Of a stretch of 64,000 nt of DNA, positions 1 through 36,577 are shown piece after piece (positions within the stretch are counted from its first letter, which is position 1; every line of letters begins with the position of its first letter). The notes beneath the pieces were generated by a model. The model made no database searches and was not told the origin of the DNA. It was given only the letters and a program-made list of their open reading frames with translations. The DNA is taken from NCBI GenBank assembly GCA_964467225.1, contig CAYXPQ010000001.1, positions 75,803 through 139,802 on the forward strand. The letters run 5' to 3'. The position numbers were made by a program, and so were the translations under genes. This DNA comes from an uncultured Candidatus Saccharibacteria bacterium. GTDB taxonomy: Bacteria > Patescibacteriota > Minisyncoccia > Phycocordibacterales > PALSA-1337.

Positions 1-1
1 A

Positions 2-1456
2 GAACATAATGATTCTCTAATGCAACAATATCTTGATGGTAAAGAGATTGCCATTGATGTTTTGAAAGCGGAAATTAGAAAATTAGTTATTGAAAACAAG
101 ATTTTCCCAGTATTTACTGGATCAGCCTTGAAGAATGTCGGTGTTCAACTAGTTCTAGATGCTGTGGTGGATTATCTACCAGCACCAACAGATATTAAAG
201 CTGTGAAAGGAACTGATCCAAATACAGGAGAGGAAATATTAAGAAAGCCATCAGATGAAGAGCCATTTGCTGCACTAGCTTTCAAGCTTCAGAATGATCC
301 ATTCGTAGGACAATTAACATTCTTCCGAGTATATTCTGGAACAATTGAGGCTGGGACATACATTTACAATTCAACTACAGGTAAGAAAGAGAGACTTGGT
401 CGTATTGTTAGATTGCAGGCTGATAAGAGAGAGGAGGTAAAGAAAGTCTTCGCGGGAGAGATCGCGGCAGCAGTGGGTCTAAAGGATGCTCTAACATCTC
501 ATACTTTCTGTGATGAGAACAACCCAATAATCCTTGAAGCTATCAAATTCTTGGAGCCAGTTGTATCCCTACGTGTTGAGCCAAAGACAAAGGCAGATCA
601 AGAGAAAATGGGTATGGCGCTTAGAAAGTTGGCAAATGAGGATCCTACATTTAAGATTTCTTCAAACAATGAAACAGGCGAGACTATTATCTCAGGTATG
701 GGTGAATTACACCTAGATATCATGGTTGATCGTATGAAAAGAGAGTTTGGTGTTGAGACAAATGTAGGTAAGCCACAAGTAGCATATCGAGAGACAATTC
801 TTGGTACTGCAGAAGCTGAACACAAATACATCAAGCAATCAGGAGGTAAGGGTCAATACGGTCACGTAAAGATTACTATTAAACCAATGGAGAAGCTTGC
901 AGAAGGTGAGAAAGTGGCAAAGAATGTAAGTAGATATGATGATTTCGAATTCATCAACTCTATTAAAGGAGGAGTTATTCCGCAAGAATTCATTCCAGCT
1001 GTTGAGAAAGGAGTTCATGAAGCTATGGATAGAGGAATTGTGGCAGGATTCAGAATGGTAAATGTAAGTTGTGAATTAACATTCGGTTCATATCATGATG
1101 TGGACTCATCAGAAATAGCATATAAGATTGCAGGATCACAGGCATTCCAAGAAGCTGCAAAGAGAGCAAAACCAGTTATTCTTGAACCTATAATGAAGCT
1201 TGAAGTTCTTTTCCCTGACAAATTCATGGGAGATGTAACAGGAAGCATTTCATCAAAGAGAGGAACAATTGAAGAAATGACAGAAAGAGGTCAATCAAAG
1301 GTTCTACATGCCATGGTACCTCTATCAGAAATGTTCGGTTATACAACTCAATTAAGATCAATGACATCAGGACAAGGCTCAGCAACAATGGAATTTGATC
1401 ATTACGAAGTGGTTCCAAAGAATGTGGAAGCATCAATAGTTGAAGCAAGGAAATAG
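2..1456 (+). CDS. fusA: elongation factor G, C-terminal ~478 aa (5' end lies upstream of window)
   Basis: ORF open to the window edge. The translation shows EF-G domains II–V. It is followed by a strong terminator and lies in the str-operon context upstream of tuf. Confidence 0.9.
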   Translation, partial: EHNDSLMQQYLDGKEIAIDVLKAEIRKLVIENKIFPVFTGSALKNVGVQLVLDAVVDYLPAPTDIKAVKGTDPNTGEEILRKPSDEEPFAALAFKLQNDPFVGQLTFFRVYSGTIEAGTYIYNSTTGKKERLGRIVRLQADKREEVKKVFAGEIAAAVGLKDALTSHTFCDENNPIILEAIKFLEPVVSLRVEPKTKADQEKMGMALRKLANEDPTFKISSNNETGETIISGMGELHLDIMVDRMKREFGVETNVGKPQVAYRETILGTAEAEHKYIKQSGGKGQYGHVKITIKPMEKLAEGEKVAKNVSRYDDFEFINSIKGGVIPQEFIPAVEKGVHEAMDRGIVAGFRMVNVSCELTFGSYHDVDSSEIAYKIAGSQAFQEAAKRAKPVILEPIMKLEVLFPDKFMGDVTGSISSKRGTIEEMTERGQSKVLHAMVPLSEMFGYTTQLRSMTSGQGSATMEFDHYEVVPKNVEASIVEARK

Positions 1457-1511
1457 TATTGGGGATAACTAAATTTGTGAGATTATAAATTAGATATATA
1501 ATATACTCACT

Positions 1512-1556
1512 ACCAAAGAAGGTGTCTCGCAAGTCGAGCACCTTCTTTGTTTGGTA
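1512..1556 (+). terminator. rho-independent terminator after fusA
   Basis: Nested GC-rich hairpin accaaagaaggtg-t-ctcg-caagt-cgag-caccttctttg followed by a T-rich tract ttggt. Confidence 0.7.
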
Positions 1557-1581
1557 AATTATTAAAATATAAAAAACAAAA

Positions 1582-2061
1582 ATGTTCGGTATACACTTAA
1601 AGCATGTTCTTGTTCTAACTCTGTTGGCAGGTATAGCATATTCTTTGCCACAAGTTAAAGACGGACTTTCAGATTCTTTCTCCAGTATATATGTGCAAAA
1701 TCAAGCAGCACTTTTTAATTTTCCAAATATTAATCCTCAAAATAGCTATGGTAATAGAATGATGAATAATCAGGCTATAGGTGTTGGGGAGATTAAGAAA
1801 ATGATAATTGTTCCTGAAGAAATAGTACGTGTTCTAGTCAAAGAAGGAGTAATTCCACAAGACAAAGCAGTTCTTGCAGTAAAAATCTTGAAGGAAAGAC
1901 TATTTAATAATCAACCAATGCCTCCACAACAACAAGGAGCAAGTACCACTAGACCAAATGTAATAAGGGTACAGGTATCTACTTCTTCACGACCTATGAT
2001 GAAATTGGAATTACAGAGATCTCCATATGAATTTCAGGAAAGGGTACAACTGGATAACTAA
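1582..2061 (+). CDS. hypothetical secreted protein (N-terminal signal-like hydrophobic segment, Q/N/P-rich)
   Basis: 159-aa ORF with an ATG start. The N-terminus has the signal-peptide-like stretch LVLTLLAGIAYS. Terminators lie before and after the gene. Confidence 0.5.
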   Translation: MFGIHLKHVLVLTLLAGIAYSLPQVKDGLSDSFSSIYVQNQAALFNFPNINPQNSYGNRMMNNQAIGVGEIKKMIIVPEEIVRVLVKEGVIPQDKAVLAVKILKERLFNNQPMPPQQQGASTTRPNVIRVQVSTSSRPMMKLELQRSPYEFQERVQLDN

Positions 2062-2094
2062 TCTTTTATAGGTATCCTTTTGGGTTTATAATAA

Positions 2095-2116
2095 AGACCA
2101 GTTAAGCTGGTTTTTA
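2095..2116 (+). terminator. rho-independent terminator-like hairpin
   Basis: Hairpin accag-ttaag-ctggt followed by a T5 run. Confidence 0.45.
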
Positions 2117-2134
2117 TTATTTATTATTTAATTT

Positions 2135-5100
2135 ATGAAGAATATTATTAAAGTTTCTGTTTCAATATCTGTAATTTTTGTAGTTTTATTTGGTTTTAAT
2201 ATACAAATTTCAAATGCACAGACAAATTCTAATAAAGTTTTGAGTGGAGCTTGTATTTCTATAAACTCTTCTAAAACAATGAAAATTTCTTCCGGTAAAG
2301 TTTATATTAACGGAAAGGAATATGAATATACTGGGGGCGGCGGAAGTTTTCCAAGTAATAAATCATTTCCACTTTATGTAAAAACTCTTTATGGAAGTGT
2401 ATATAATCCATTGCCTGGAGAGGGTAAGGATGGTCCAGATAGTCTTAAGATTGGATATGTTACTACAGGTAAAGATAGTTTGATTACTGAAATAGTAAAT
2501 GTTTCACCATGGTGTGAGAATTATTCTTATGATATTGCAACAACAGCTACTACAAGTAAACCAGTAATAAAGGTTATTAGTCCAAATGGAGGAGAAGTTT
2601 TATATGTTGGCCAAAGTTATCCTGTAAAGTGGAGTGACAACAGTGGAGATGTAAGCAATGTATCTATTTCCCTAATAGATTACAATTCTGGAACGGAATT
2701 TAATCTATCTGGAGATGTCTCATCTAGGTCTTCAGGTGTAGATGGAACAAGCGTTTATTCACTACTAATACCGTCATATATAACAAAGAATATGACAACT
2801 ACAGGTGATGGTAACAATAAATTTAAAATTAGAATTTATTCTAAAAATGGAGCGGTAGATTCAAGTGATAACTATTTTACTGTAAGATCTACAACAACGC
2901 CATCTCTAAAAGTTATTAGTCCAAATGGTGGTGAGACACTATTAATGGAAGGATATTATCCTATAAAATGGTATGACACTAGGGATAGAAGCGATGTTAC
3001 TATATTTCTCGTTGATTACAAAAGCGGAACTGCAATACCTTTAGCTAGTAATGTATCTGTTACTGCATCAGGTATTGATGGTATAAGTACTTATACAGTC
3101 CAAATTCCAGGATATGTAGAAAGAAAGTTGGCAGTCGATACTAAGAGCTTTAAAATTAGAGTTGATTCAACTGGCGGGAGTGATTTAAGTGATGATTACA
3201 TTACTATAGCTTCTGCAACTTCTTCCAGCATAGACACCCCATGCTTTACTTTTAACAGAGACCTATCATACGGATCAGAGAACAAGGAAGTTGACTATCT
3301 AGTCAAAGCTCTACTTAAAGAAGGATCAATAAGAAATCCAAATAATCTAACTATTAAAAGTGAGAAATTTGATGAATCAGTATTAACTGGTGTAGTAGCA
3401 TTTCAAGGTAAATACGGAATACCACAAACAGGATATGTAGGACCTCTTACAAGAGCGATGTTAAATCGACTTTATGGTAATTGTAATCAGAGTGAGAATA
3501 TTTCTGCTACATTAAAGTTAATTAGCCCAAATGGTGAGTTATATAATGTTGGCTCAAGAGTTCCAATCTCATGGAATCACAATGGTAATCTAAAGAGTGT
3601 AACAATAGATATAATGACTGCTGATGGACAGAAAACATTACTTTCTCAATCATATAATGAAAATCCAGGAAGATATTCTTTCTTAGTAGCTACAGGAACA
3701 CCAGAAGGTAAGTATATGGTAAGAATAAGAACAACCAACTATTCTTCAAGTAATTATTTCTATGTGGGTAGCACAGGAAATTCTGCGACAAACTCAAAAT
3801 GTGATTTTGAGGTAAAATCACCAATAGCAAATTCTAAGGTTAACTTCCCACTGACAGTAACTGGTACTATAGATAGAAGTAAGTCAAATAATGCTGGATG
3901 TAGATGGCAAACATTTGAAGGGGTAGCTGGTACGGCCAAATTTTACGCTTATCTTACAGAAAAGAATCGTGATGGAACAATGAAAGGCTGGACATCAATA
4001 GGTGATTCAGTAATTATGAATCTAGAGAAAGTTAACTCAGATAAATCAAATTTTAATGTCAGATTTAATTTTCCGGAGGGAGGTTTCCAAATTAATAATC
4101 CAGTTAAGATTGTGTTTACAGAGGAAAATCCAGCAGCAATACGTCCAGCACTTACCTTTGAATTACCATTATACTTAGATACCTCAGGAAATTCTGCGAC
4201 AACAACTCCAAACATCTCCAAGGCTCAAATATCTGGTTCATGTGTTCTGAGTGCACCATCTGGTTATGCCATTACTTCAGGTAAATTAAAATTAAACGAT
4301 AAAGAATATTCATTTAGTGGTGGAAGAGGGTCATATTTGCCAAGTAATAGAGTAATGCCAGTATATCTATATATGCCAAGAGAGGGTTATGTGGCAAGTT
4401 ACGTATATTTGAATCCACCAGTAAATGTAGGGGTTGGAACAACTACAGCATTGAAGATTGCAACAATTGTTACAGGAGATAAAGGGGTTATAAGAAATAT
4501 TTATAATCTAAATCCTCTTTGTCAAAGTTATACAAATATCAAAGCTGAAGCAACATCAGTGCCTACAACTAATCAAACAATAAAGGTTATAAGTCCAAAT
4601 GGTGGGGAAGTGTGGCAGATAGGTAAGACATATGAATTTAGATGGAGTTCAAGTGGAATAGATAAGGTAATGATCAATCTTACAAATCAAGATAATAATT
4701 TTGGATATGGTACATTGAATGCTATTGATGCGAGAACAGGAAGGGTCACCTATACACTTCCAAATACTCTACCGGCAGGTAAATACAAAGTATTTATGGT
4801 GGATGCATCAGGTAAAACAATTACAAATGATTCAAGTGATAATTATTTCACAATAGTAAATTCAACATCAGGATATACACCAACTCCATCTACTACATAC
4901 ACTCCATATCCAAGCTATACACCTACATACTCACCAACTCCAAGTCAAACATATAATTCATACCCAACAGCAACCTACACCTCATCACCAACATACACAA
5001 CTAGCCCAACATATTCATCTACTCCAACATATACCTATACACCAAGTCCAACTTATTCATCATCACCTACAGCAACATATTCACCTAGTTATACATACAG

Positions 5101-5218
5101 TCCAAGTCCATCATATTCACCATCGCCATCTTCTTCACCGACTTCATTCTATGATATAGACAGGTTCTCATTAGGTGCAGCAATACTTAGTGCATTTAGG
5201 GGAATGATGGGGTTGTAG
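2135..5218 (+). CDS. large secreted surface repeat protein with a peptidoglycan-binding domain and an S/T/P/Y-rich tail
   Basis: 1027-aa ORF with a signal peptide. It has at least four internal repeats of a ~90-aa module carrying the motif (I/V)SPNGGE..W..G..Y.(I/F)(K/R)W; this resembles the Kre9/KNH-like family (tentative). A PG_binding_1-like segment is present (DYLVKALLKEG..VVAFQGKYGIPQTGYVGPLTRAML). There are duplicated large N-terminal and central modules (SGKVYINGKEYEY... and SGKLKLNDKEYSF...). The C-terminus has ~90 aa of T/P/S/Y-rich low complexity followed by a short hydrophobic end. Confidence 0.75.
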   Translation: MKNIIKVSVSISVIFVVLFGFNIQISNAQTNSNKVLSGACISINSSKTMKISSGKVYINGKEYEYTGGGGSFPSNKSFPLYVKTLYGSVYNPLPGEGKDGPDSLKIGYVTTGKDSLITEIVNVSPWCENYSYDIATTATTSKPVIKVISPNGGEVLYVGQSYPVKWSDNSGDVSNVSISLIDYNSGTEFNLSGDVSSRSSGVDGTSVYSLLIPSYITKNMTTTGDGNNKFKIRIYSKNGAVDSSDNYFTVRSTTTPSLKVISPNGGETLLMEGYYPIKWYDTRDRSDVTIFLVDYKSGTAIPLASNVSVTASGIDGISTYTVQIPGYVERKLAVDTKSFKIRVDSTGGSDLSDDYITIASATSSSIDTPCFTFNRDLSYGSENKEVDYLVKALLKEGSIRNPNNLTIKSEKFDESVLTGVVAFQGKYGIPQTGYVGPLTRAMLNRLYGNCNQSENISATLKLISPNGELYNVGSRVPISWNHNGNLKSVTIDIMTADGQKTLLSQSYNENPGRYSFLVATGTPEGKYMVRIRTTNYSSSNYFYVGSTGNSATNSKCDFEVKSPIANSKVNFPLTVTGTIDRSKSNNAGCRWQTFEGVAGTAKFYAYLTEKNRDGTMKGWTSIGDSVIMNLEKVNSDKSNFNVRFNFPEGGFQINNPVKIVFTEENPAAIRPALTFELPLYLDTSGNSATTTPNISKAQISGSCVLSAPSGYAITSGKLKLNDKEYSFSGGRGSYLPSNRVMPVYLYMPREGYVASYVYLNPPVNVGVGTTTALKIATIVTGDKGVIRNIYNLNPLCQSYTNIKAEATSVPTTNQTIKVISPNGGEVWQIGKTYEFRWSSSGIDKVMINLTNQDNNFGYGTLNAIDARTGRVTYTLPNTLPAGKYKVFMVDASGKTITNDSSDNYFTIVNSTSGYTPTPSTTYTPYPSYTPTYSPTPSQTYNSYPTATYTSSPTYTTSPTYSSTPTYTYTPSPTYSSSPTATYSPSYTYSPSPSYSPSPSSSPTSFYDIDRFSLGAAILSAFRGMMGL

Positions 5219-5250
5219 AAGTTATCAACTTTTAACAGAATTAATTTAAA

Positions 5251-5289
5251 AATATACTTTATGGGTGAAGAATATCCATAAAGTATATC
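5251..5289 (+). promoter_or_regulatory. perfect inverted repeat spanning the start codon of the downstream protease gene
   Basis: The sequence is aatATACTTTATGG-gtgaagaatat-CCATAAAGTATatc. Each arm is 11 bp perfect (13/14 when extended). The loop begins with the GTG start codon at 5265, and a T-rich tract follows. Confidence 0.5.
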
Positions 5290-7349
5290 TTTTCATATTA
5301 ATTTTTCTATTCAGTTCATCACCTGTATCAGCGATTGAGATTCAGTGCATAAATAATGAAACAAACGATTTAGCTTTTCATGTTAATAATCAAATAGACA
5401 ATAGAATTAAATTGTCTGATTCATCAACGGGGTTAAATATCTATAGTGTTAGGTCTACTGAGGCAGGGTCAAATTGGACTAGGAATTCTAATTCTTGGAC
5501 TCAAAAATTATCACCTCTAGATTTTACTGGAGTAAGTGGATCAAATAATGATTTAGCACATCATGCTAACAATCCTTATTGGGGAGGGGCAACACTTATT
5601 ACTCCAAGACATTTTGTAACAGCAAATCACTTTAGATTTGAAAATGGTTCAACTGTTAATTTCTATGATAAGGAGGGAAGGGTAGTCTCTAGGAAAATGA
5701 CTAATTCCTATACAGTTCCAAATACTGATATTACAGTAGGACTACTCGAAAGCGATGTCGATAACAGTATCACATATTATCCTGTTATGAAAATTTCTAC
5801 ATTAGAGAGTATGTTATCAAGACCAGACGGATATTTCTATAATGATTTACCAATAGTAGTATTTAATCAAAATGCACAAGCAATAATTCGCTCCCTTATA
5901 AAAAAAGACACACCAAAAAGTTTTAATCATGCTAATTACGGTGATAGTATTAGATCTAGCTTCACCAAGGACTTAATAGAAGGAGACTCAGGACAGCCAG
6001 GTTTTATTATCATTAATGATAAGCCAATTTTACTTTTTGCAAATTTTCTAACGAATACATCTCCAAGTTTGGGTGATTATATTAATGAAATAAATTCTGG
6101 CATACAATCTTTGGGAAATAGTAATGGATATAATATTACAGAATATACAAATAATAATTTTAAAACATATAGTTCATTCTGTACTGGGCCAGTGTTACCA
6201 TCGCCTGATCAGTTTAAAGTTACAACAAATACCGCATGCTTATCTCCTACAGATAAATTAAAGGTAGATATAACTTGGTCTAAGCCACTAAATTATTCTA
6301 TGCAATCTAGTGGATATCAGTATAGATTATATAAGAACAATCAATCTCCAGATTTCTTATCAATGAATACTTATAATTATACTGATATAAATGTTCAACC
6401 TAATACAGAATATACTTACATATTAAAACTATATTACGGAACATATTCATCAGGTGAAGTAAAATTCCAAATAAAAACTCCATCTTTGTGCTCATCTTCT
6501 GTTATAGTAAATAATCCTCCAGTTGTTGTATCTAATCCAGTTCCAGTTACTACTCCTCTATCCAATTATGAACCTTTACCAGCCAAAAATAATGATGCGG
6601 ATAAGGACGGAATAATAGACGGCCTGGATATGTGTCCAAATACAAGTATTGATCAAAAAAGTTTTGTTAATACCAAAGGATGCATTAAACCAAAAATAAC
6701 TAAATTTAGTTTTTCAAAAGATTTATCCAATATTGATCTTAGAGAAGTTGATAATCTTGAAATATCTAATTCATATGGAAGGGTGTTGTTCACTTCACCC
6801 GTTTCACTTACAAGATCTAATCAACAATTAGACATTGATACTAATTTATACATTGGCAATAATATAGTTTCATTAAATTCTGTTAATCTTCCTGAATTAA
6901 ATAGGGGAGCGATAATTACATTTAACAATCTTTCCTATAGAAATCCAGTAATATATAAAGATGATTCAATTTGTACTACTTGTGAAGTTGTTTCTTATAC
7001 CAATAATACTTTCAGATTTAAAGTCCTAGGATTTTCAAATTATTCTGTTGTAGATATGCCACTTATTCCAGACAAACCTGTAATAATAGATAACCCCATT
7101 CAGGATCCAACTCAACCTGTGACAATTACGCAACCCGCAGTACAGCCAGTAATCATTACTCAGTCAGTTGTTAATCAGAGTGTTGTCCAACAAGTACAGA
7201 CACCACCAACACAACAAACAAAACCATTATCACAACAAGGAATACCAAAACTCCAATCAAATCCCAACATTGAAGTTCCAGTTGATAATAATCAAGTACC
7301 AGATGCAGATATTTTTAATACTGGTTATTTCCCTGAAGATATATATTGA
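5265..7349 (+). CDS. secreted trypsin-like (S1 family) serine protease with Fn3-like domain, thrombospondin-type-3-like Ca-binding repeat and Q/P/V-rich C-terminus
   Basis: 694-aa ORF with a GTG start and a signal peptide ending VSA|IEI. His motif WGGATLITPRHFVTANHF, compared with trypsin CGGSLI..WVLTAAHC. Asp candidate in NTDITVGLL. Ser motif EGDSGQPGF, compared with GDSGGP. An Fn3-like region follows (YQYRLYKNNQSP...TEYTYILKLYYG), then DADKDGIIDGLDMCPNT (TSP3/OmpA-like Ca-binding). Confidence 0.65.
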   Translation: MKNIHKVYLFILIFLFSSSPVSAIEIQCINNETNDLAFHVNNQIDNRIKLSDSSTGLNIYSVRSTEAGSNWTRNSNSWTQKLSPLDFTGVSGSNNDLAHHANNPYWGGATLITPRHFVTANHFRFENGSTVNFYDKEGRVVSRKMTNSYTVPNTDITVGLLESDVDNSITYYPVMKISTLESMLSRPDGYFYNDLPIVVFNQNAQAIIRSLIKKDTPKSFNHANYGDSIRSSFTKDLIEGDSGQPGFIIINDKPILLFANFLTNTSPSLGDYINEINSGIQSLGNSNGYNITEYTNNNFKTYSSFCTGPVLPSPDQFKVTTNTACLSPTDKLKVDITWSKPLNYSMQSSGYQYRLYKNNQSPDFLSMNTYNYTDINVQPNTEYTYILKLYYGTYSSGEVKFQIKTPSLCSSSVIVNNPPVVVSNPVPVTTPLSNYEPLPAKNNDADKDGIIDGLDMCPNTSIDQKSFVNTKGCIKPKITKFSFSKDLSNIDLREVDNLEISNSYGRVLFTSPVSLTRSNQQLDIDTNLYIGNNIVSLNSVNLPELNRGAIITFNNLSYRNPVIYKDDSICTTCEVVSYTNNTFRFKVLGFSNYSVVDMPLIPDKPVIIDNPIQDPTQPVTITQPAVQPVIITQSVVNQSVVQQVQTPPTQQTKPLSQQGIPKLQSNPNIEVPVDNNQVPDADIFNTGYFPEDIY

Positions 7350-7467
7350 ATATGAGAAGCCAAGTTACTATAGGATTGCCGTAGATTTTGTAAAACATCA
7401 AGCAAATGAAATTATTGGAAGAATTACTAGAGGTTTTATGAAAATATGGAGTAAAATTTGACAAGCA

Positions 7468-7501
7468 AATGCGTACTTGCTATGATGGCGAGTACGCATT
7501 T
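7468..7501 (+). terminator. stem-loop (possible terminator) downstream of the protease gene
   Basis: Perfect 11-bp stem aaatgcgtact ... agtacgcattt with a 12-nt loop. The tract after it is only weakly U-rich. Confidence 0.4.
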
Positions 7502-7592
7502 AGCGTTGGTGTTTCTAGGGTTACTACCCTTATTTTATTAATTTAGTTAACAATTTATCTTTAATTCTTCGGGATTAAAGCACTAAAATTAT

Positions 7593-8780
7593 ATGGCAGC
7601 AGAATTTAATCGTTCAAAGACCCATGTTAACGTAGGTACTATTGGCCACGTGGATCATGGAAAGACAACACTTACTACTTCAATTCTAGCAGTACAAGCA
7701 AAAGACGGTCTTGCTACACTCAAGGCTTATGCTGATATTGCAAAGGGAGGTACTGTTCGAGATGCAACAAAGGTGGTTACTATTTCTCTAGCTCACGTAG
7801 AATACGAGACAGCAAATAGACATTATGCTCATATCGATGCTCCAGGTCACGCTGATTACATAAAGAACATGATCACAGGTGCCGCTCAGATGGACGGTGC
7901 TATTCTTGTAGTATCTGCTCTTGATGGAGTTATGCCACAAACAAGAGAGCATATTCTTCTAGCTTATCAGGTTGGAGTGCCAAATATTGTTGTTTTCCTT
8001 AATAAATGCGACATGGTTGCTGAAGCTGATCTACTAGATCTAGTGGAAGAAGAGGTAAGAGATCTTCTTACAAAGAACCACTACGATGGTAAGAATGCTA
8101 CAGTTATCAGAGGTTCTGCTCTAAAAGCTCTTGAGGGTGATCCAGTATGGGTAGCCAAGATCAAGGATCTTATGAACGCTCTAGATACAGCAATCCCAAC
8201 ACCAGTACGCGAAACAGATAAGCCATTCCTTATGCCAATTGAAGACATCTTCTCAATCGAAGGTAGAGGAACAGTAGTAACAGGCCGTGTAGAAAGAGGA
8301 ACTCTAAATCTAAACGACGAAGTTGAAATAATTGGATTCAAGGATACTTCAAAGACTACAGTTACAGGTATTGAAATGTTCAATAAGTCTCTAAAGCAAG
8401 CTATTGCTGGAGATAATGCTGGACTTCTGCTAAGAGGAACAGGCAAGGATGATGTCACAAGAGGTATGGTTCTTGCAAAAACTGGCTCAGTAAAGCCACA
8501 TACAGATTTTGAAGCTGAGGTATACATCCTTAAGAAAGAAGAGGGAGGAAGACACACACCTTTCTTTACAGGATATAAGCCACAGTTCTACATCAGAACA
8601 ACAGATGTTACAGGAGAAGTAACACTAGCTCAGGGAGTTGAGATGGTTATGCCTGGAGATACAGTAACATTTAAGGTTAAGCTAGTAGCACCAGTAGCTC
8701 TTGAAGACAAAATGAGATTTGCTATTCGAGAGGGGGGTAAGACAGTAGGTGCAGGAGTTGTAACAAAGATTGTTGCATAA
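7593..8780 (+). CDS. tuf: elongation factor Tu
   Basis: 395 aa with [19 protein letters not shown] and NKCD GTPase motifs; full-length EF-Tu. Confidence 0.97.
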
Positions 8781-8798
8781 TTAATTTAGATTAATATC

Positions 8799-9176
8799 AT
8801 GACTACAATCGCTAAAGAAACAAATAAAGTATCAAAGCCAAGAGCAAGTAAGGTTGCTAAGGAAGGAGAAGTTGCAAAGCTTCGAATTCGAGTTAAGGCT
8901 TATGAGAATAAGATTCTGGATGCTTCATTAAAGCAGATAATGGATACAGCGATTCGTTATGATGTACAGTTCTTTGGCCCTATTCCACTTCCAACAGAGA
9001 TTAAGAAATACACAGTCAATCGTGCTTCTTTCGTATTCAAGAATGCTAGAGAGCAATTTGAAATGAGAGTTCACAAGAGATTAATTGATATTCTAAATCC
9101 AAATCAGAAGATTATAGAGGCACTTACTAACCTAAGCTTACCATCTGGAGTCAATATTGACGTTAAAATGATGTAA
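8799..9176 (+). CDS. rpsJ: 30S ribosomal protein S10 (with N-terminal K-rich extension)
   Basis: Core sequence RIRVKAYENKILD...FFGPIPLPT matches S10. It is 18 nt downstream of tuf. Confidence 0.93.
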   Translation: MTTIAKETNKVSKPRASKVAKEGEVAKLRIRVKAYENKILDASLKQIMDTAIRYDVQFFGPIPLPTEIKKYTVNRASFVFKNAREQFEMRVHKRLIDILNPNQKIIEALTNLSLPSGVNIDVKMM

Positions 9177-9194
9177 GATAAGTAAAATACTGCA

Positions 9195-9800
9195 ATGAAA
9201 TTTATTCTTGGACGAAAATTAAATATGACTCAAATATTCGATAAAGATGGTGTAGTTCAGCCAGCTACTCTTATCGCAACTACTCCAGTAGTGGTAACTC
9301 AAATAAAGACAAAGGAAAATGATGGTTATGATGCTATTCAAGTTGCAACAGGCAAGACAAATCCAAGTAGATTAAATAAAGCAATGAAGGGTCATGTAAA
9401 GGATCTAGGTGCTTTTACTGATCTCAGGGAATTTAGAGTTGATAATCCAACAAATAAAGTAGGAGACAAAGTTGAATTAACTCAATTCAATCCAGGCGAT
9501 ATTGTAGAAGTTAGTGCAATTACAAAGGGTAAGGGATTCCAAGGTGTAGTTAAGAGACATGGTTTCGGAGGAGGACCAAGAACTCATGGTCAGAAGCACT
9601 CAGAAAGAGAGCCAGGTTCTATCGGAGGAGGATTGAGAAATAAAGTTCCAAAGAAAATGAGAATGGCAGGAAGAATGGGTGGAGATAGAGTTACTGTGAA
9701 GAATTTAAAAGTTCTTCATGTTGATTCTACAACAAATACTCTATATATTTCTGGAGCAGTACCAGGTCGTCGAGGTACATTGATAGAGATCACCTCATAA
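9195..9800 (+). CDS. rplC: 50S ribosomal protein L3
   Basis: 201 aa with L3-like sequence, at the conserved S10-operon position. Confidence 0.93.
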   Translation: MKFILGRKLNMTQIFDKDGVVQPATLIATTPVVVTQIKTKENDGYDAIQVATGKTNPSRLNKAMKGHVKDLGAFTDLREFRVDNPTNKVGDKVELTQFNPGDIVEVSAITKGKGFQGVVKRHGFGGGPRTHGQKHSEREPGSIGGGLRNKVPKKMRMAGRMGGDRVTVKNLKVLHVDSTTNTLYISGAVPGRRGTLIEITS

Positions 9801-9805
9801 ATTTT

Positions 9806-10459
9806 ATGGAACATATAATATACAATCAGAAAGGAAAGGAAGCAGGAAAGATTAAATTACCAGAATCAGTTTTTGGTATTGCTTGGAATGCAGACTTGGT
9901 TCATCAAGTTGTTACATCAATGATGTCTAGTGCTAGACATCCTATAGCTCATACTAAGACTCGTGGAGAGGTAAGTGGAGGAGGTAAGAAGCCATGGCAA
10001 CAGAAGGGTACAGGTCGCGCAAGACATGGTTCTACAAGATCACCTATTTGGGTTGGTGGAGGTATTGCTCATGGTCCGAGGAATGACAAGAATTTCGACA
10101 GAAAAGTAAATAAGAAAGCTAGATCAAAAGCTCTTTATACTATTCTTTCAAAAAAATTAAAAGATGGTGAAATACTATTTGTAGATTCATTGAATTTCTC
10201 AAAACCACAGACAAAGGATGCAAAAGAAATAATTGTTTCATTCTCAAAAATCAAAGGATTTGAGAAATTCTCAACAAAACCAAAAAATGTTGCATTGATC
10301 GCTCTAGACAAGAAGACATCAGAAGTTACAAAGAGTTTCCAGAACTTTGGCAATGTTTCAGTAGAAGAATTGAGAACAATTAACCCCGTTTCACTTATGA
10401 ATCATAAGTATTTGGTTATTGCTAATCCAAAAGAAAGCCTTAAAATTTTTGATAAATAA
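9806..10459 (+). CDS. rplD: 50S ribosomal protein L4
   Basis: 217 aa with L4-like sequence and conserved position. Confidence 0.92.
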   Translation: MEHIIYNQKGKEAGKIKLPESVFGIAWNADLVHQVVTSMMSSARHPIAHTKTRGEVSGGGKKPWQQKGTGRARHGSTRSPIWVGGGIAHGPRNDKNFDRKVNKKARSKALYTILSKKLKDGEILFVDSLNFSKPQTKDAKEIIVSFSKIKGFEKFSTKPKNVALIALDKKTSEVTKSFQNFGNVSVEELRTINPVSLMNHKYLVIANPKESLKIFDK

Positions 10460-10460
10460 C

Positions 10461-10730
10461 ATGACAACAATAATCCGACCAAGAATAACAGAGAAATCAG
10501 GAATTGCAGGTGAGAACTTGAATGTTTACACATTTGAGGTTTTCAAAAACTCTACAAAGCTCTCAATAGAGAAAGAAATAAAAGCTTTGTACAAAGTTAA
10601 TCCTGAAAAGATTAGAATTATTAATCTTCCAGCAAAGACTATTATTGTCAGAGGCAAAAGGGGCACTCAATCTGCAGTTAAAAAGGCATTAGTTTATCTC
10701 AAAAAGGGAGATAAGATAAATATCGCTTAA
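10461..10730 (+). CDS. rplW: 50S ribosomal protein L23
   Basis: ATG at 10461 immediately after the L4 stop. The product MTTIIRPRITEKS... is L23-like. The longer ORF from 10419 overlaps rplD and was not used. Confidence 0.88.
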   Translation: MTTIIRPRITEKSGIAGENLNVYTFEVFKNSTKLSIEKEIKALYKVNPEKIRIINLPAKTIIVRGKRGTQSAVKKALVYLKKGDKINIA

Positions 10731-10746
10731 ATTTATAATAATCACC

Positions 10747-11607
10747 ATGAAAAGCTATCATCCATCAACACCATCAAGAAGACACATGACTACGATTCCA
10801 TATCGTAAGTATCTTACAGCATCTGAACCTTTCAAAGCTCTTACAAAGGGTATGAAGAGAGATATGGGAAGAAACTCTGCTGGAAGAATTACTGTTAGAC
10901 ATAAGGGTGGAGGAAATAAAAAGCTATATCGTATGGTGGATTTCTCTTATGATAAGAAGAATATTCCTGCTAAGATTATAACTATTGAATACGATCCATT
11001 CAGAACAGGATTTATCGCTCTTGCACAATATGCAGATGGTGAGAAGAGATACGTACTTGTACCAAAGAATATGAAAGTTGGTGATAAGTTCATTGTTTCT
11101 GAGACGGCTTCTATAGAAATAGGCAACAGACTACCATTGAAGAACATTCCAGTTGGAACATTTGTATATAATATTGAGATCAAGCCACAAGGTGGTGCAA
11201 AGTTAGTTAGAGGAGCAGGATCATTTGCTCAAGTTATTGCTAATGATGCAGGATATACTCATATTAAATTACCTTCAACAGAAGTAAGAAAAGTTCATGA
11301 TAATGCATGGGCTACTGTTGGTACAGTATCAAATGATGAAAGCAGACTTGTTAATATTGGTAAGGCAGGAAGATCAAGATGGCTAGGTATACGTCCAACT
11401 GTCAGAGGTTCTGCTCAAAACCCAGTCGATCATCCATACGGAGGAGGAGAGCAGAGAGCGGGTCGAGGTCTACGAAGGCTTAAGACTCGATGGGGTAAGC
11501 CAGCCGGCAAGGGTCAGAAGACAAGAACTCCAAAGAAATATTCAAACATCTTTGTAGTATCACGAAGAAAGGTCGGTAAGAATAAAAATGTAGAGTCAAA
11601 TGGATAA
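10747..11607 (+). CDS. rplB: 50S ribosomal protein L2
   Basis: 286 aa with a C-terminal GGGEQRAGRG..R L2 signature region. Confidence 0.95.
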   Translation: MKSYHPSTPSRRHMTTIPYRKYLTASEPFKALTKGMKRDMGRNSAGRITVRHKGGGNKKLYRMVDFSYDKKNIPAKIITIEYDPFRTGFIALAQYADGEKRYVLVPKNMKVGDKFIVSETASIEIGNRLPLKNIPVGTFVYNIEIKPQGGAKLVRGAGSFAQVIANDAGYTHIKLPSTEVRKVHDNAWATVGTVSNDESRLVNIGKAGRSRWLGIRPTVRGSAQNPVDHPYGGGEQRAGRGLRRLKTRWGKPAGKGQKTRTPKKYSNIFVVSRRKVGKNKNVESNG

Positions 11608-11682
11608 GTTCATTAAAAAAACAAAATCAATAATAGACAATTTGATAATCAGTCTTATTGATTCGCTAAATTAATGAATAAT

Positions 11683-11710
11683 TTGACTTAATACGAAATT
11701 TTGTTAGTAT
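11683..11710 (+). promoter_or_regulatory. sigma70-like promoter TTGACT-N16-TAGTAT upstream of rpsS
   Basis: Lies in the 110-nt rplB–rpsS gap. The same hexamers occur upstream of rpsN. Confidence 0.45.
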
Positions 11711-11718
11711 AAAAAACC

Positions 11719-12066
11719 ATGTCACGATCACTTAATAAAGGACCATACGTTGAAGAGCGACTCTTGCAAAAGATAGCTGGAAAGAAACCTACTGAAACTG
11801 GGGTTATTAAGACATGGTATAGAAGAAGTCAGATTTCTCCTGAAATGGTCGGATTTATCTTCGGAGTATACAATGGGAGACAGCATGTTGATGTACTGGT
11901 CTCAGAGGATATGGTAGGACACAGATTGGGTGAATTCGCTCCTACTCGTAAATTCCTTAGACATGGAGGTAAAATGCAGAAAGAGCTTGAATTAAAGGCT
12001 AAGGAGAATGAAATGGCAGCTGCAAAATCAGCAAAGGAGGCTGCAGCAGCACCTGCTAAAAAATAA
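11719..12066 (+). CDS. rpsS: 30S ribosomal protein S19 (with Ala/Lys-rich C-terminal extension)
   Basis: S19 core GPYVEERLL...[13 protein letters not shown]. It carries an extra ~25-aa A/K/E-rich tail. Confidence 0.92.
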
Positions 12067-12075
12067 TTTAAATAT

Positions 12076-12417
12076 ATGATTACCGCATCACTAAAAAATT
12101 ATAGACAATCACCACGAAAGGTAAGAAGTGTGGCTAATCTTGTACGCGGTAAATCAGTCGATCAGGCTTTAAATACTTTGAATTTCTTGAGTAAAAAAGC
12201 AGCAGACCCACTTTATGGTTTGTTACTTTCTGCAATTGCTAATGCCAAGAATAATTTTAAAATCGAAAAGGACAATCTTATTATAAAAGAAATACGAGTA
12301 GATGCTGGCTATATATTAAAGCGTCGAATGCCAAGAGCTCGAGGGAGTGCATTCCCAATTAACAAAAGAACAAGTCATGTAAATTTGGTACTTACACCAA
12401 AGCCAGTTAAAAAATAA
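12076..12417 (+). CDS. rplV: 50S ribosomal protein L22
   Basis: 113 aa with L22-like sequence and conserved position. Confidence 0.92.
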   Translation: MITASLKNYRQSPRKVRSVANLVRGKSVDQALNTLNFLSKKAADPLYGLLLSAIANAKNNFKIEKDNLIIKEIRVDAGYILKRRMPRARGSAFPINKRTSHVNLVLTPKPVKK

Positions 12418-12421
12418 TTTT

Positions 12422-13102
12422 ATGTCACATTCAGTACACCCATATTCACATAGATTAGGAGTAATACGAGACTGGAAGAGTCGATGGTTCTCTCTTAATA
12501 AAGGATATAGAACAGCCTTGAAGACTGATTTAATTATTCGTGAATTTTTAATAAAAGAGCTTAGAAATTTCTATTTAGCTGATATACATATTGAAAGAAA
12601 TAGAAAGACTTTGAGAATTGTTATTAAAACTTCAAGACCAGGTATGATAATTGGTCGTGCAGCAGATGGAGTTCAAAAGTTAAATCAAAAGATTCTTAAT
12701 TTATTAAAGAAAAAGGGTATAGATCTAGTTGGACAAGAATTGAGATTAGACATTGAAGAAGTTAAGAACCCAGAATCAAATGCATCAATCGTAGCTATGA
12801 TGGTTGCAGAAGGTCTTGAGAAGAGACTTCCATTCAGAAGAGTTCTAAAACAAACTCTTGAGAAAGTTCTGGCTAACAAGGAGGTAAAGGGAGCAAAGAT
12901 CAAACTTGCTGGAAGACTTGGTGGTGCAGAAATGGCAAGACAAGAGGATTTAAAGAAGGGTCAAATTCCACTTCAGACATTGAGAGCTGATATTGACTAT
13001 GCTCGTGAGAAAGCCCATATGACATATGGAGATATCGGTATAAAGGTCTGGATATACAAAGGTCAAATTTTCAGTAAAGATATTAAGATAAATAATAAAT
13101 AA
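12422..13102 (+). CDS. rpsC: 30S ribosomal protein S3
   Basis: 226 aa with KH-domain S3 sequence. Confidence 0.94.
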   Translation: MSHSVHPYSHRLGVIRDWKSRWFSLNKGYRTALKTDLIIREFLIKELRNFYLADIHIERNRKTLRIVIKTSRPGMIIGRAADGVQKLNQKILNLLKKKGIDLVGQELRLDIEEVKNPESNASIVAMMVAEGLEKRLPFRRVLKQTLEKVLANKEVKGAKIKLAGRLGGAEMARQEDLKKGQIPLQTLRADIDYAREKAHMTYGDIGIKVWIYKGQIFSKDIKINNK

Positions 13103-13107
13103 CTACC

Positions 13108-13539
13108 ATGCTTTTCCCTAAAAAAGTAAAATTCAGAAAGTGGCATACTGGCAGGACAAATGCTAAGAAGCTTGCTAATGGTGTAGAGACAAGAGGTGTT
13201 AAATTATCTTTCGGATCATTTGGTCTTAAGGCGCTATCATATGGAAGACTTTCATCAAATGAGATTGAAGCAGCAAGAAAGGTTATGGCAAGATATGCTA
13301 CAAAGTCAGGAAAGGTATGGGTTAGAATTTTCCCTGATAGACCATTTACACAGAAGCCACCTGAAGTTAAGCTAGGAAAGGGTAAGGGAGATCCAGTCGG
13401 ATTCGTAGCCCAAGTCAAAGCTGGTCGTGTACTCTTTGAAATTGACGGAGTTGATGATAAGGTAGCACAAGAAGCTCTGAGAAAGGCTGGTACAAAGATT
13501 TCCGTTAAGACAAAGGTTGTTAGTAGAAATATGATGTAA
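13108..13539 (+). CDS. rplP: 50S ribosomal protein L16
   Basis: 143 aa with L16-like sequence. Confidence 0.94.
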   Translation: MLFPKKVKFRKWHTGRTNAKKLANGVETRGVKLSFGSFGLKALSYGRLSSNEIEAARKVMARYATKSGKVWVRIFPDRPFTQKPPEVKLGKGKGDPVGFVAQVKAGRVLFEIDGVDDKVAQEALRKAGTKISVKTKVVSRNMM

Positions 13540-13552
13540 TTCAAACAAAATT

Positions 13553-13729
13553 ATGAAAGAACTAAAAAATAAAACTCCACAAGAATTGAAAAAACTCGTA
13601 GCAGAGAAGCGAGAGGTTCTTCGTAATTTTAGATTTGGAACTTTGGGTGGAAAGTCAAAGAATGTAAAGCTTGGACATACAACAAAGAAAGAAATCGCAA
13701 GAATAATGACAGAATTGTCACTTCGATAA
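13553..13729 (+). CDS. rpmC: 50S ribosomal protein L29
   Basis: 58-aa ORF MKELKNKTPQELKKLVAEKREVLRNFRF... It is below the length cut-off of the ORF track and was found by manual translation. L29-like coiled coil at the conserved position. Confidence 0.85.
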   Translation: MKELKNKTPQELKKLVAEKREVLRNFRFGTLGGKSKNVKLGHTTKKEIARIMTELSLR

Positions 13730-13745
13730 AAAGTAAAATAATTTT

Positions 13746-14006
13746 ATGGATAAGAAAAATACACAAAATAATACAGTATCAAAAAGAAAGATTCTTTCAG
13801 GAGTTGTTGTGTCCGACAAAATGAAAGATACAATAGTAGTTCTTGTTGAGAGATTTGTTAAGGATAATAAATACAAGAAATACATTACTCTTAGAAAGAG
13901 ATACAAGGTACATGATGCTGGAAACACAAAGAAGATCGGAGACAAAGTCTCAATAGAGTCATGTAGACCTATTTCAAGACATAAGTCTTTTAAAGTAATT
14001 TCATAA
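13746..14006 (+). CDS. rpsQ: 30S ribosomal protein S17
   Basis: 86 aa with S17-like sequence. Confidence 0.92.
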   Translation: MDKKNTQNNTVSKRKILSGVVVSDKMKDTIVVLVERFVKDNKYKKYITLRKRYKVHDAGNTKKIGDKVSIESCRPISRHKSFKVIS

Positions 14007-14016
14007 CAAAACTACC

Positions 14017-14388
14017 ATGATACAACCACGTTCAATAGTAAGAATAACAGATAATTGCGGAGCAAAAATTGGCCGTATATTCAAAGTTCTTGGTAGCTCA
14101 AAGAAGAGATATGCTGAGATAGGAGATTTGGTAATACTTTCTGTACAAAAAGCAGAACCAAGAAAGACAATTAAGAAAAAAGACGTTCTTCAAGGTGTAG
14201 TCGTAAGACAAGTAAAAGCTTATAGAAGGAAGGACGGTTCTTATATTAGATTTGATGAGAATTCAGTAGTTATTCTTGAAAAGGGAAAGAAGGAGCCAAT
14301 TGCAGGTCGTATATTCGGTCCAATTCCAAGAGAGATTGCTGAGAAGGGCTTCCAGACAATTGCTTCTAAAGCACCAGAAATAGTATAG
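14017..14388 (+). CDS. rplN: 50S ribosomal protein L14
   Basis: 123 aa with L14-like sequence. Confidence 0.95.
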
Positions 14389-14401
14389 TAATTTAAATAT
14401 C

Positions 14402-14620
14402 ATGAAAATCAAAAAGGATGACAATGTAATAGTTTTGACTGGAAAGGACAAGGGTAAGTCTGGTAAAGTTTTAAAGTCTTTCCCCAAGGAGAATAAAGTT
14501 CTAGTATCAGGAATCAATGTATTTAAGAAACACCAAAGACCAACAAAGCAAGGTCAGAAGGGACAAGTGGTAGAGAAGAGCGGTCCTATTCATGTTTCTA
14601 ATGTTGCATTAAAGAAATAA
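14402..14620 (+). CDS. rplX: 50S ribosomal protein L24 (short, KOW domain only)
   Basis: 72 aa with KOW motif [15 protein letters not shown], at the conserved position. Confidence 0.88.
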
Positions 14621-14621
14621 T

Positions 14622-15191
14622 ATGAAAACACATACAGCAAAAACTACATTTGAGATGAATAAGGAGTCTTTCAAGGCTTTGAAGGAGAAATTTGGTCTCA
14701 AAAATCCTATGCAAGCACCAATGCTTTCTAAGGTTGTTATTAGTACAGGTACTGGATCAATTAAAGACAAAAAGAAGATTGAGCTTGTTGCCGATAGACT
14801 TTCAAAAATAACAGGACAGAAGCCAGCTCCAAGATCAAGCAAGAAGTCAATCGCTTCATTCAAAGTTAGACAAGGAGATCTCGTCGGTTATCAAGTAACA
14901 CTAAGAGGTAAGAGAATGTGTGATTTTATTGATAAGCTTATTCATATAGCACTCCCAAGAACAAAGGACTTCCGTGGTATTACAAAGACTGCAGTAGATC
15001 AGATGGGTAACTACACTCTAGGAATCAAAGAGCACACAATTTTCCCTGAGACAGCAGATGAAGATCTAAAGGATGTATTCGGATTTGGTATTACAGTAGT
15101 GACAACATCAAAGAGCAAGGAACAGACATTAGCTTTCATGGAGTATCTCGGTTTCCCATTTAAGAAAGAAGAGGTAAAGAAGAGGGGGTAG
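14622..15191 (+). CDS. rplE: 50S ribosomal protein L5
   Basis: 189 aa with L5-like sequence. Confidence 0.94.
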   Translation: MKTHTAKTTFEMNKESFKALKEKFGLKNPMQAPMLSKVVISTGTGSIKDKKKIELVADRLSKITGQKPAPRSSKKSIASFKVRQGDLVGYQVTLRGKRMCDFIDKLIHIALPRTKDFRGITKTAVDQMGNYTLGIKEHTIFPETADEDLKDVFGFGITVVTTSKSKEQTLAFMEYLGFPFKKEEVKKRG

Positions 15192-15194
15192 GTT

Positions 15195-15224
15195 TGACTA
15201 GAAAAATTACATTTGTTAATATTT
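15195..15224 (+). promoter_or_regulatory. sigma70-like promoter TTGACT-N17-TAATAT immediately after rplE
   Basis: Near-consensus hexamers. It directs plus-strand transcription into a ~60-nt unit that ends at a hairpin and T7 run. Confidence 0.45.
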
Positions 15225-15228
15225 GATC

Positions 15229-15292
15229 ATGAAAGAAACTTTCGGCCGTGGTTTATATACCACACTTGGCGGAGGGTTTTTTTCTTTTAATC
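15229..15292 (+). ncRNA. candidate small RNA / terminator module (could also encode a 25-aa peptide MKETFGRGLYTTLGGGFFSFNLFL)
   Basis: Bounded by the promoter at 15195 and the hairpin GTGGT-ttatat-ACCAC plus gagggTTTTTTTc. It is convergent with the minus-strand gene 15287..15706. Confidence 0.3.
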
Positions 15293-36488: not shown

Positions 36489-36575
36489 GGAGAGATGGGT
36501 GAGTGGTTTAAACCAGCGGTTTACTAAACCGCCGTTCTTTAATTAGAACCGCGAGTTCGAATCTCGCTCTCTCCG
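36489..36575 (+). tRNA. type II tRNA-Ser-like gene with apparent anticodon ACU (unusual)
   Basis: Acceptor GGAGAGA/TCTCTCC, anticodon arm GCGGT-TTACTAA-ACCGC, long variable arm gttct-ttaat-agaac, T-arm GCGAG-TTCGAAT-CTCGC and discriminator G. Confidence 0.65.
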
Positions 36576-36577
36576 CA

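Follow-up and report, generated by a model that had tools for sequence, protein, structure and literature searches.

A probably ancestral gene cassette for putative envelope proteins separates fusA from tuf in an uncultured patescibacterium

What separates fusA from tuf in this genome, how long has it been there, and what might it do? The window, by which we mean the whole 64,000-nucleotide stretch of contig CAYXPQ010000001.1 from an uncultured bacterium deposited as Candidatus Saccharibacteria, opens inside fusA, and this part matches, with 100% identity, the full 714-aa EF-G of another assembly (L001), which carries the Pfam EF-G domains. An initial annotation made from the sequence of the window had remarked that fusA and tuf, normally adjacent, stand about 6 kb apart here, and both halves of the remark hold. 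A spacer of 6,136 bp with three plus-strand open reading frames (ORF1, ORF2, and ORF3) runs from the end of fusA at 1456 to the start of tuf at 7593, and in 25 of the 27 non-patescibacterial loci among those listed the fusA-tuf gap is 29–188 bp, so a 6-kb gap is unusual among bacteria. The reading we favor, with a probability of about 0.5 when its proposed mechanism is included, is that the spacer is a lineage-ancestral, rapidly diversifying envelope module of a Paceibacteria-type patescibacterium. Judging from the sequences, the module would consist of a peptidoglycan-binding scaffold rich in immunoglobulin-like (Ig) domains (ORF2), an S1-like protease with a ZU5/Nup98-like module (ORF3), and a small partner protein (ORF1). 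Its anatomical part alone, that is, what the genes encode and the ancestry of the cassette within the lineage, we consider quite likely.

The argument for ancestry comes from the relatives. The three-gene cassette sits at the same fusA-tuf site in L003/L004, L006, L087, and L090, which is to say in every close relative recovered, and L092 has a protease and peptidoglycan-binding pair there. Counted together, six related lineages have the cassette or the pair at this site, with EF-Tu or EF-G at 91–99% identity and cassette proteins at 43–76%. Proteins flanking the cassette are 89–100% identical among the relatives, whereas identities within it fall to 43–90% for ORF1, 56–76% over the alignable parts of ORF2, and 49–70% for ORF3, and ORF2, which has gained and lost Ig modules, measures anywhere from 470 to 1027 aa. 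In four of the lineages (the window, L003, L006, and L087), third codon positions of tuf and fusA are 59–88% identical, and 59–66% for the more distant pairs. Since the cassette occupies one site in relatives whose tuf and fusA synonymous sites are nearly saturated, and since its borders bear no repeats, integrase gene, or tRNA gene, it appears to date back to the ancestor of a lineage about as deep as a genus or a family. That it is instead a mobile island recently inserted into the str operon is extremely improbable, and we rejected this candidate. Its GC content (0.28–0.36, against 0.38–0.42 in fusA and tuf) and its unusual location would suit such an origin, but repeat, ORF, and domain scans of the borders found no flanking direct repeats, integrase or transposase gene, or tRNA gene. 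The repeats that were detected are internal to ORF2, at the Ig-module boundaries and in a linker rich in Ser, Thr, Pro, and Tyr. Nor is there patchiness among the close relatives recovered; the site is identical in relatives with only 59–66% identity at third positions of tuf and fusA, and a related pair fills the same gap in L092. The initial annotation's description of the genes as inserted and accessory thus does not fit the synteny.

If the cassette is old, then what do its genes encode? All three proteins begin with a basic stretch followed by a hydrophobic one, in the manner of a signal peptide, and AXA-like cleavage motifs follow in ORF2 (SNA before Q) and ORF3 (VSA before I), which agrees with the earlier view of three genes for exported, surface-type proteins. 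ORF2 and ORF3 also start with nearly identical codons (an MKNI.KV repeat).

ORF3 is very likely a serine protease of the trypsin fold, to judge from its predicted structure. The AlphaFold2 model of the protease domain, computed from a 23-sequence alignment, has a predicted local distance difference test score (pLDDT) of 92.1 and a predicted template modeling score (pTM) of 0.91, and Foldseek comparison with the PDB returned 743 matches at E<=1e-3. The best 50 of these 743 are all trypsin-fold serine proteases (trypsin, thrombin, chymotrypsin, and relatives), the top ones at E ~1e-9, probability 1.0, and template modeling (TM) scores of 0.45–0.62, so the modeled domain would adopt the double beta-barrel of chymotrypsin. 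His122 (in TANH), Asp155 (in TDITVG), and Ser242 (in GDSGQP) are invariant in 19–23 homologs, as are many other positions, and their order and the GDSGxP motif match those expected of an S1 triad. The first ~300 residues of ORF3 represent a domain common to many Patescibacteria proteins, often followed there by Ig-like domains and a C-terminal PG_binding_1. The family has no curated model and counts 3,918 cluster representatives at E<=1e-3 among the 1.84 billion representatives scanned; its full-length alignment matches mostly PG_binding_1 endolysins in the PDB, through parts missing from ORF3. The link from ORF3 to a curated S1 model is transitive only, because it runs through a distant family member (P0236) that matches the family profile at E 2.5e-43 and passes Pfam PF00089 (Trypsin) with 28.4 bits against a cutoff of 20.6.

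ORF3 would thus share with the S1/clan PA peptidases (PF00089, PF13365) the two-beta-barrel fold (Foldseek E 1e-9) and the His-Asp-Ser order, and its family motifs TA(N)H, D(I)T(V)GLL, and GDSGxP resemble theirs. It differs from the solved S1 enzymes in its ~15% identity to them, in an ~85-aa N-terminal extension with a conserved LDFTGV motif, in having no Cys after the catalytic His, and in setting the catalytic domain within a long surface-protein architecture. In that architecture, an analogy may be drawn with the wall-associated cell-envelope proteinases of Gram-positive bacteria, such as lactococcal PrtP and streptococcal C5a peptidase, which like ORF3 are large and exported, with Ig/FN3-like spacers, a Pro/Thr-rich region of wall-spanning type, and a C-terminal anchor, and a role in feeding an auxotrophic cell would be plausible for both. 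The Gram-positive enzymes, however, are subtilisin-like (S8) and anchored by LPXTG and sortase, while ORF3 is S1-like with a short amphipathic or hydrophobic tail and no LPXTG, and the peptidoglycan-binding domain is here on a separate neighboring protein.

That neighbor is ORF2, which had been described as a 1027-aa protein of ISPNGGE-type repeats with a PG_binding_1-like domain, and both elements of the description withstood profile searches. The repeats (ISPNGGE three times, ISPNGEL once) belong to Ig-like modules of the Pfam family Kre9_KNH (PF10342; 46.4 bits against a cutoff of 24.6), of which three stretches were scored and four SPNG-type modules are visible. PG_binding_1 (PF01471) scores 24.7 bits on the whole protein against a Pfam gathering cutoff of 23, 29.4 bits (E 9e-7, profile positions 8–57) on the excised residues 368–452, and 32 bits in the L087 ortholog. 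Because the domain passes its cutoff, the failure in hidden Markov model searches that the initial annotation had named as a refutation did not occur. The linker (94 aa) is 91% Ser, Thr, Pro, or Tyr, and the protein ends in ...RFSLGAAILSAFRGMMGL. In orthologs of 470, 797, and 922 aa, the signal peptide, PG_binding_1, linker, and tail are all retained, and it is the Ig modules that vary; against PDB sequences, ORF2 gave one low-complexity match only. As in endolysins, amidases, and surface proteins with PG_binding_1, the domain clears the curated threshold, and the profile of the distant protease family also matches PG_binding_1-containing endolysins and a cell-wall hydrolase. Unlike in typical PG_binding_1 proteins, it is internal, between Ig-like modules, with an insertion of ~10 aa, and unlike in PG_binding_1 hydrolases, no wall-hydrolase domain accompanies it on the same protein.

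Which wall might ORF2 bind? The window encodes MurB and type IV pilus genes, and the source organism is a patescibacterium that, by its MurB, makes its own peptidoglycan. The closest named EF-Tu among the matches listed is from a Candidatus Taylorbacteria genome (82% identity), and the next-best ones listed are from genomes labeled Patescibacteria, Parcubacteria, or Saccharibacteria. Since such a cell builds peptidoglycan, its own wall would be the simpler ligand. If PG_binding_1 instead docked on the wall of a host, as the initial annotation had suggested, then the protease could degrade host surface proteins or peptide stems and open the host envelope. Such an attack would fit the patescibacterial nature of the organism, the type IV pilus genes of the window, and a family member that adjoins a type IV pilus cluster in L094, and the cassette proteins evolve far faster than their neighbors, with reshuffled modules, as host-range determinants would. 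Bacteriolytic enzymes of the S1 fold also exist, for example the alpha-lytic protease of Lysobacter. We nevertheless think this explanation rather unlikely. The producer has peptidoglycan of its own available for binding, and PG_binding_1 commonly anchors a protein to the wall of the cell that makes it. The C-terminal tails and the linkers of wall-spanning type likewise suggest tethering on the producer, and Pfam and NCBIfam scans found no lysozyme, amidase, or M23 lytic domain.

The tails deserve closer attention, since the end of ORF3 at 7349 given in the initial annotation is not the true one. Alignment and three-frame translation show that in the orthologs P0002–P0007 the Pro/Gln-rich linker is succeeded by a conserved tail (for example, EYEKPSNLKIAIDFIKRETANIIDRIAKGFMRVWSKI), and the corresponding 37 aa of the window are encoded in the +1 frame, beyond a frameshift at a (TA)n run near 7340–7349 and the stop codon at 7347–7349. 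Two further, independent assemblies, L001 and L002, have identical DNA at this place. The frameshift may reflect a truncation that has become fixed, phase variation, or, as the less likely option, programmed frameshifting. Two specific candidates were rejected: an alternative genetic code with UGA as a sense codon, as the tail is encoded in +1 and more stops follow in the 0 frame, and a programmed +1 frameshift at UAU-UGA, which has no support and would yield a product one residue shorter than the orthologs. The displaced tail has a helical hydrophobic moment of 0.73, reached by 0 of 500 shuffles, and ORF3-type tails in general have moments of 0.5–0.8, with the observed value reached by 0–2 of 500 shuffles in 7 of 8 tails. 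Most members of the protease family (P0002–P0025) end in this way, with a hydrophobic or amphipathic tail of 20–25 aa after a low-complexity linker, and the recurrent tail is a candidate for a new C-terminal anchor or sorting signal of surface proteins. PBP5 and PBP6 of E. coli have C-terminal amphipathic helices as membrane anchors, and by analogy ORF3 may likewise be a Sec-exported-type protein ending in a helix of ~18–25 aa with a high hydrophobic moment, though the two share no sequence relationship and ORF2-type tails are more uniformly hydrophobic. That the ORF2 tail carries the ORF3-type motif was considered and is not established in this clade.

The frameshift also raises the question of whether the genes still function. 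If the cassette were decaying cargo, its genes would be remnants drifting toward pseudogenes in a permissive site, with domain resemblances that no longer correspond to a function. The loss of the conserved ORF3 tail, an in-frame stop in ORF1 of L090, and a GC content below that of the flanks are what one would expect of such remnants. Yet the genome, AT-rich as it is, still has long unbroken ORFs of 694 and 1027 aa, and more than 20 homologs share the catalytic triad and many other positions without exception. All ORF2 orthologs have retained PG_binding_1, linker, and tail despite synonymous saturation of the neighbors, and L092 has retained the same gene pair. We therefore consider decay very unlikely.

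Between the protease domain and the missing tail, ORF3 contains a second module of possible catalytic interest. The fold predicted for it is a beta-sandwich of the Nup98-APD type, its profile finds the Nup116 C-terminal domain in the PDB at E 0.04, and Pfam PF04096 (Nucleoporin2, peptidase S59), with a cutoff of 28.4 bits, gives ~17 bits in ORF3 orthologs and 26.8 bits in a distant member, P0159. The domain ends in the motif GFS(N/T)YSV, with GFS at aa 589–591, which is invariant in all five orthologs, and S59 peptidases cut at the C-terminal end of the domain, between HF and S/T (bioRxiv 10.64898/2026.09.13.750810). ZU5, GPS, and Nup96/98 autopeptidases have already been united in one superfamily, which spans the S59 domains of Nup98/Nup145N, ZU5 of PIDD, and GPS/GAIN and includes bacterial surface proteins and polymorphic toxins, with ZU5 domains in large bacterial surface proteins (PMC3482391). 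The literature searched gave no other direct description of bacterial Nup98-like domains, and none of an S1-like protease combined with a ZU5/Nup98-type module.

These features would also permit a more specialized interpretation, in which the locus is a surface-display and host-interaction system particular to Patescibacteria. Its two large proteins would be exported and held by a kind of C-terminal tail signal not described before, and a self-cleaving Nup98/ZU5-type module would keep the S1-like protease bound non-covalently and let it be shed at the contact site. The scaffold would engage the host wall, and the locus would be a determinant of host specificity. If this were true, then the extreme divergence and module shuffling would be host-range adaptation, but we regard it as distinctly improbable.

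Whether the scaffold and the protease belong together can be asked of more distant genomes. In L092, whose EF-Tu and EF-G are 91% and 94% identical, the order is fusA, a protease-family protein with a Kre9_KNH module, a 1094-aa PG_binding_1 protein, a PMT-family glycosyltransferase, and tuf, and the two large proteins (8001–14112) share the tail PVFRATLWDA[VI]K[VN]LFGF. In L094, a fusion of protease and PG_binding_1 stands beside the type IV pilus cluster, and a protein with an architecture like that of ORF2 lies 3 kb away from it; single polypeptides are also known that join the protease domain with PG_binding_1 or with Kre9_KNH. Proteins of the protease type and of the PG_binding_1/Ig type are thus linked, by fusion and by neighborhood, in three genomic contexts. 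The PMT-family gene of L092 (protein O-mannosyltransferase-like; 14136–15422) lies inside the same gap and, by analogy, hints that the linkers rich in Ser, Thr, and Pro are O-glycosylated; no PMT homolog was found in the 64-kb window.

The third gene, ORF1, is more restricted. Its conserved N-terminal hydrophobic segment and central helix, followed by a C-terminal part rich in Pro, Gln, Ser, and Thr, point to a small exported or N-terminally anchored protein. Pfam and NCBIfam scans found no known domain, and only 5 homologs (43–90% identical) turned up among 5.8 billion proteins, those of L087 and L090 in the same position. It had been called a small secreted Q/N-rich protein, of which the size and the exported-type N-terminus stand, while the Q/N-richness is weak (Q 8.8%, N 7.5%). 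In L090, the ortholog (9734–10282) has a 57-nt insert whose in-frame TAA splits it into ORFs of 78 and 93 aa, and is either a pseudogene or an assembly error. Coordinates of all features are given in Table 1.

Table 1. Features of the fusA-tuf region, in window nucleotides or in residues (aa) of the encoded protein
Feature	Position	Strand	Remarks
fusA 3' part (EF-G)	20..1456	+	left border of the spacer; from the ORF list
Hairpin with U-rich tail after fusA, candidate intrinsic terminator	1514..1556	+	hairpin 1514-1549
ORF1, 159 aa	1582..2061	+	from the ORF list
Hairpin with U-run after ORF1, candidate intrinsic terminator	2088..2130	+	hairpin 2088-2120
ORF2, 1027 aa, putative modular surface protein	2135..5218	+	from the ORF list
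ORF2 predicted signal peptide	aa 1-28
ORF2 two paralogous modules of no known family	aa ~35-130, ~697-800
ORF2 four Kre9_KNH-type Ig-like modules	aa 143-252, 256-360, 458-545, 814-908
ORF2 PG_binding_1	aa ~389-443; 3299..3463	+	Pfam PF01471
ORF2 domain without family assignment	aa ~555-683
ORF2 S/T/P/Y-rich linker	aa 910-1003
ORF2 short hydrophobic C-terminal tail	aa 1004-1027; 5144-5215
16-bp AU-rich hairpin enclosing the ORF3 GUG start	5252..5288	+	only hairpin between ORF2 and ORF3
ORF3, 694 aa as encoded, GTG start	5265..7349	+	from the ORF list
ORF3 predicted signal peptide	aa 1-23
ORF3 predicted trypsin-fold serine protease domain	aa 24-310; 5334..6194	+	His122, Asp155, Ser242 in GDSGQP
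ORF3 FN3-like module	aa ~310-405
ORF3 TSP3 calcium-binding repeat	aa 442-461
ORF3 Nup98/ZU5-type autopeptidase-like domain	aa ~470-596; 6672..7052	+	ends G589-F590-S591
ORF3 P/Q/V-rich linker	aa 597-694
Displaced ORF3 3' end, conserved 37-aa amphipathic tail EYEKPSYYRIAVDFVKHQANEIIGRITRGFMKIWSKI	7348..7461	+	+1 frame
Conserved tuf promoter and ~105-nt leader	7452..7592	+	right border of the spacer; TTGACA 7458-7463, 17 nt, TG-TATGAT 7481-7486
tuf (EF-Tu)	7593..8780	+	followed by the S10 operon: rpsJ, rplC, rplD, rplW, rplB, rpsS

How might these genes be expressed within an operon of the translation machinery? The claim that each gene has its own terminator is right in part. Good candidates stand after fusA (-22.9 kcal/mol, z-score -6.5; 0 of 200 shuffles fold as well) and after ORF1 (-17.1 kcal/mol, z -5.2), but the hairpin between ORF2 and ORF3 (-20.6 kcal/mol, z -4.1) covers the ORF3 start, and the last one, after ORF3 (7517–7530; -9.3 kcal/mol, z -1.9), is weak and comes after the tuf promoter, inside the conserved leader, where a U-run accompanies it. 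The ORF2/ORF3 hairpin, whose 5' arm 'ATATACTTTA' is conserved in L003, L006, L087, and L090, is unconvincing as a terminator and is possibly a translational control or stability element. In L090, the hairpin after fusA is conserved and that after ORF1 identical, while in L087 both are absent and only a 22-nt spacer follows ORF1. The strong sigma-70-type promoter of tuf (TTGACA-17-TGnTATGAT) is the best match in the region, at 11 of 12 positions, and the block of ~140 nt up to the tuf ATG is nearly invariant in the four lineages compared above at third codon positions, with a 31-nt insert before the start codon in L006 and L087; in the orthologs, ORF3 ends with a stop codon that runs into the -35 box. 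An Rfam search of window positions 1–12000 at E<=1 gave no match, so the leader has no known family, and a role in regulating the tuf-S10 operon is possible for it. Promoter-like matches inside the spacer (30 against 34 expected) are at chance level and were not used.

This arrangement bears on a further alternative, that the module is housekeeping equipment for envelope maintenance, which would process the cell's own pilins, surface-layer or wall proteins, or wall peptides, and which would sit at the str/S10 site for co-expression with growth rate. A position stably inherited across species-level divergence and an organism that makes its own peptidoglycan are both compatible with it, as is L087, where transcription could run on from the str operon because no hairpins stand between fusA, ORF1, and ORF2. 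In the present genome, however, the genes are insulated from fusA by strong hairpins, and identities of 43–76% beside neighbors at 89–100%, together with gain and loss of whole modules, are not expected of housekeeping proteins. The cassette is also absent from ten other patescibacterial loci, and ORF1 or ORF3 is disrupted in some lineages. We judge this alternative unlikely, though hardly far-fetched.

If the spacer is, as we prefer, an ancestral and fast-evolving envelope module, then the following mechanism can be proposed for it. ORF2 and ORF3 would be exported by Sec and retained in the envelope by their C-terminal tails, much as PBP5 of E. coli is by its amphipathic-helix anchor, with ORF2 held additionally on peptidoglycan via PG_binding_1. 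Extended and possibly O-glycosylated linkers would span the wall and present the Ig modules and the protease at the surface, where the protease could cut proteins or peptides, either at the cell surface or at the contact between symbiont and host, for nutrient scavenging or for surface remodeling. The ZU5/Nup98-like module may cleave itself between F590 and S591, which would leave the protease attached by non-covalent contacts or able to be released. Here the tail of ORF3 is lost to the frameshift, from which one would predict a protease that is set free instead of tethered, or else a gene that is starting to decay. The position of the cassette would reflect an open and variable junction in the sampled Patescibacteria, with tuf having its own conserved promoter.

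Several observations weigh against this reading. ORF3 has no protease match in Pfam or NCBIfam at E<=1, including the curated S1 models, so its naming as a protease in the initial annotation draws its support from the predicted trypsin fold and the conserved catalytic residues; the protease profile gives no significant match to PDB sequences either (E 0.34, chymotrypsinogen and thrombin), although these non-significant alignments place the ORF3 His motif on His57 of chymotrypsinogen C. The autopeptidase-like domain of ORF3 stays below the PF04096 cutoff (20 bits, E 8e-4, against 28.4), its structural model is moderate (pLDDT 69), and, unlike in the ZU5 superfamily autopeptidases, the H-F-S/T motif is replaced by one with an invariant Gly. 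Because Gly stands where S59 and ZU5 domains have the catalytic-site His, self-cleavage is uncertain and may not occur. As for anchoring, the ORF2 tail is not clearly amphipathic by its hydrophobic moment, and the tails contain no LPXTG or other known sorting motif and had no NCBIfam match in the two that were scanned. The frameshift in ORF3 here and the stop in ORF1 of L090 suggest relaxed selection in some lineages, or else assembly errors. The loci from which the junction is judged were collected by EF-Tu among the matches listed and form a small sample. Finally, the evidence separates neither the cell's own wall from a host wall as ligand nor nutrition from remodeling as role.

How general, then, is a split fusA-tuf junction? 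In all 10 of the patescibacterial-type loci listed (L008–L030), the gap is 559–5,252 bp and holds unrelated genes, with no homologs of ORF1, ORF2, or ORF3 in any of these ten gaps. The synteny comparison that the initial annotation had proposed thus speaks against presence of the same genes throughout the phylum. The ten gaps carry genes for very large and for pilin-like proteins, as well as for small conserved proteins of two families. One of the latter, with the motif '...KKTGDRIVVFD...', stands just upstream of tuf in L024, L025, L026, and L030, and the other, with '...EWGL...EEQI...LYQAILVRSL...', takes that position in L011, L012, and L013. By these sequences, the split junction is common in the phylum sample while the particular cargo is clade-specific, and the site between fusA and tuf is a recurrently occupied and variable one in the sampled Patescibacteria. 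The literature searched on a fusA-tuf split in Patescibacteria and on peptidoglycan-binding surface proteins of the Candidate Phyla Radiation (CPR) held no direct description of either.

None of this overturns current views; the value of the locus lies in annotation and testable leads. Little is known of the ways in which ultra-small episymbionts attach to their hosts and draw food from them, and the surface proteins of these bacteria are mostly unannotated. Here, the cassette offers a conserved gene pair for testing, a putative peptidoglycan-binding multi-Ig scaffold and an S1-like protease, the latter from a large family (~3,900 cluster representatives) without a curated model. It also offers a bacterial surface protein that would join an S1-like protease, a Nup98/ZU5-type autopeptidase-like module, and a recurrent C-terminal tail. 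And fusA–tuf, normally among the most stable gene adjacencies of bacteria, appears open and variable in the sampled Patescibacteria.

Other ribosomal-protein operons of the relatives carry extra genes as well. L003 has NYN and ORF6N genes after rplE (13058–14654), L006 an ORF6N gene between rplE and rpsH (11570–12483), and L092 genes for PAP2 and a 126-aa protein between rpsG and fusA (4519–5702), so these operons seem generally porous in this lineage. Elsewhere in the window, ARAGORN predicts a tRNA-Ile with anticodon TAT (31877–31951) and a tRNA-Ser with anticodon ACT (36489–36576), both anticodons being unusual for bacteria.

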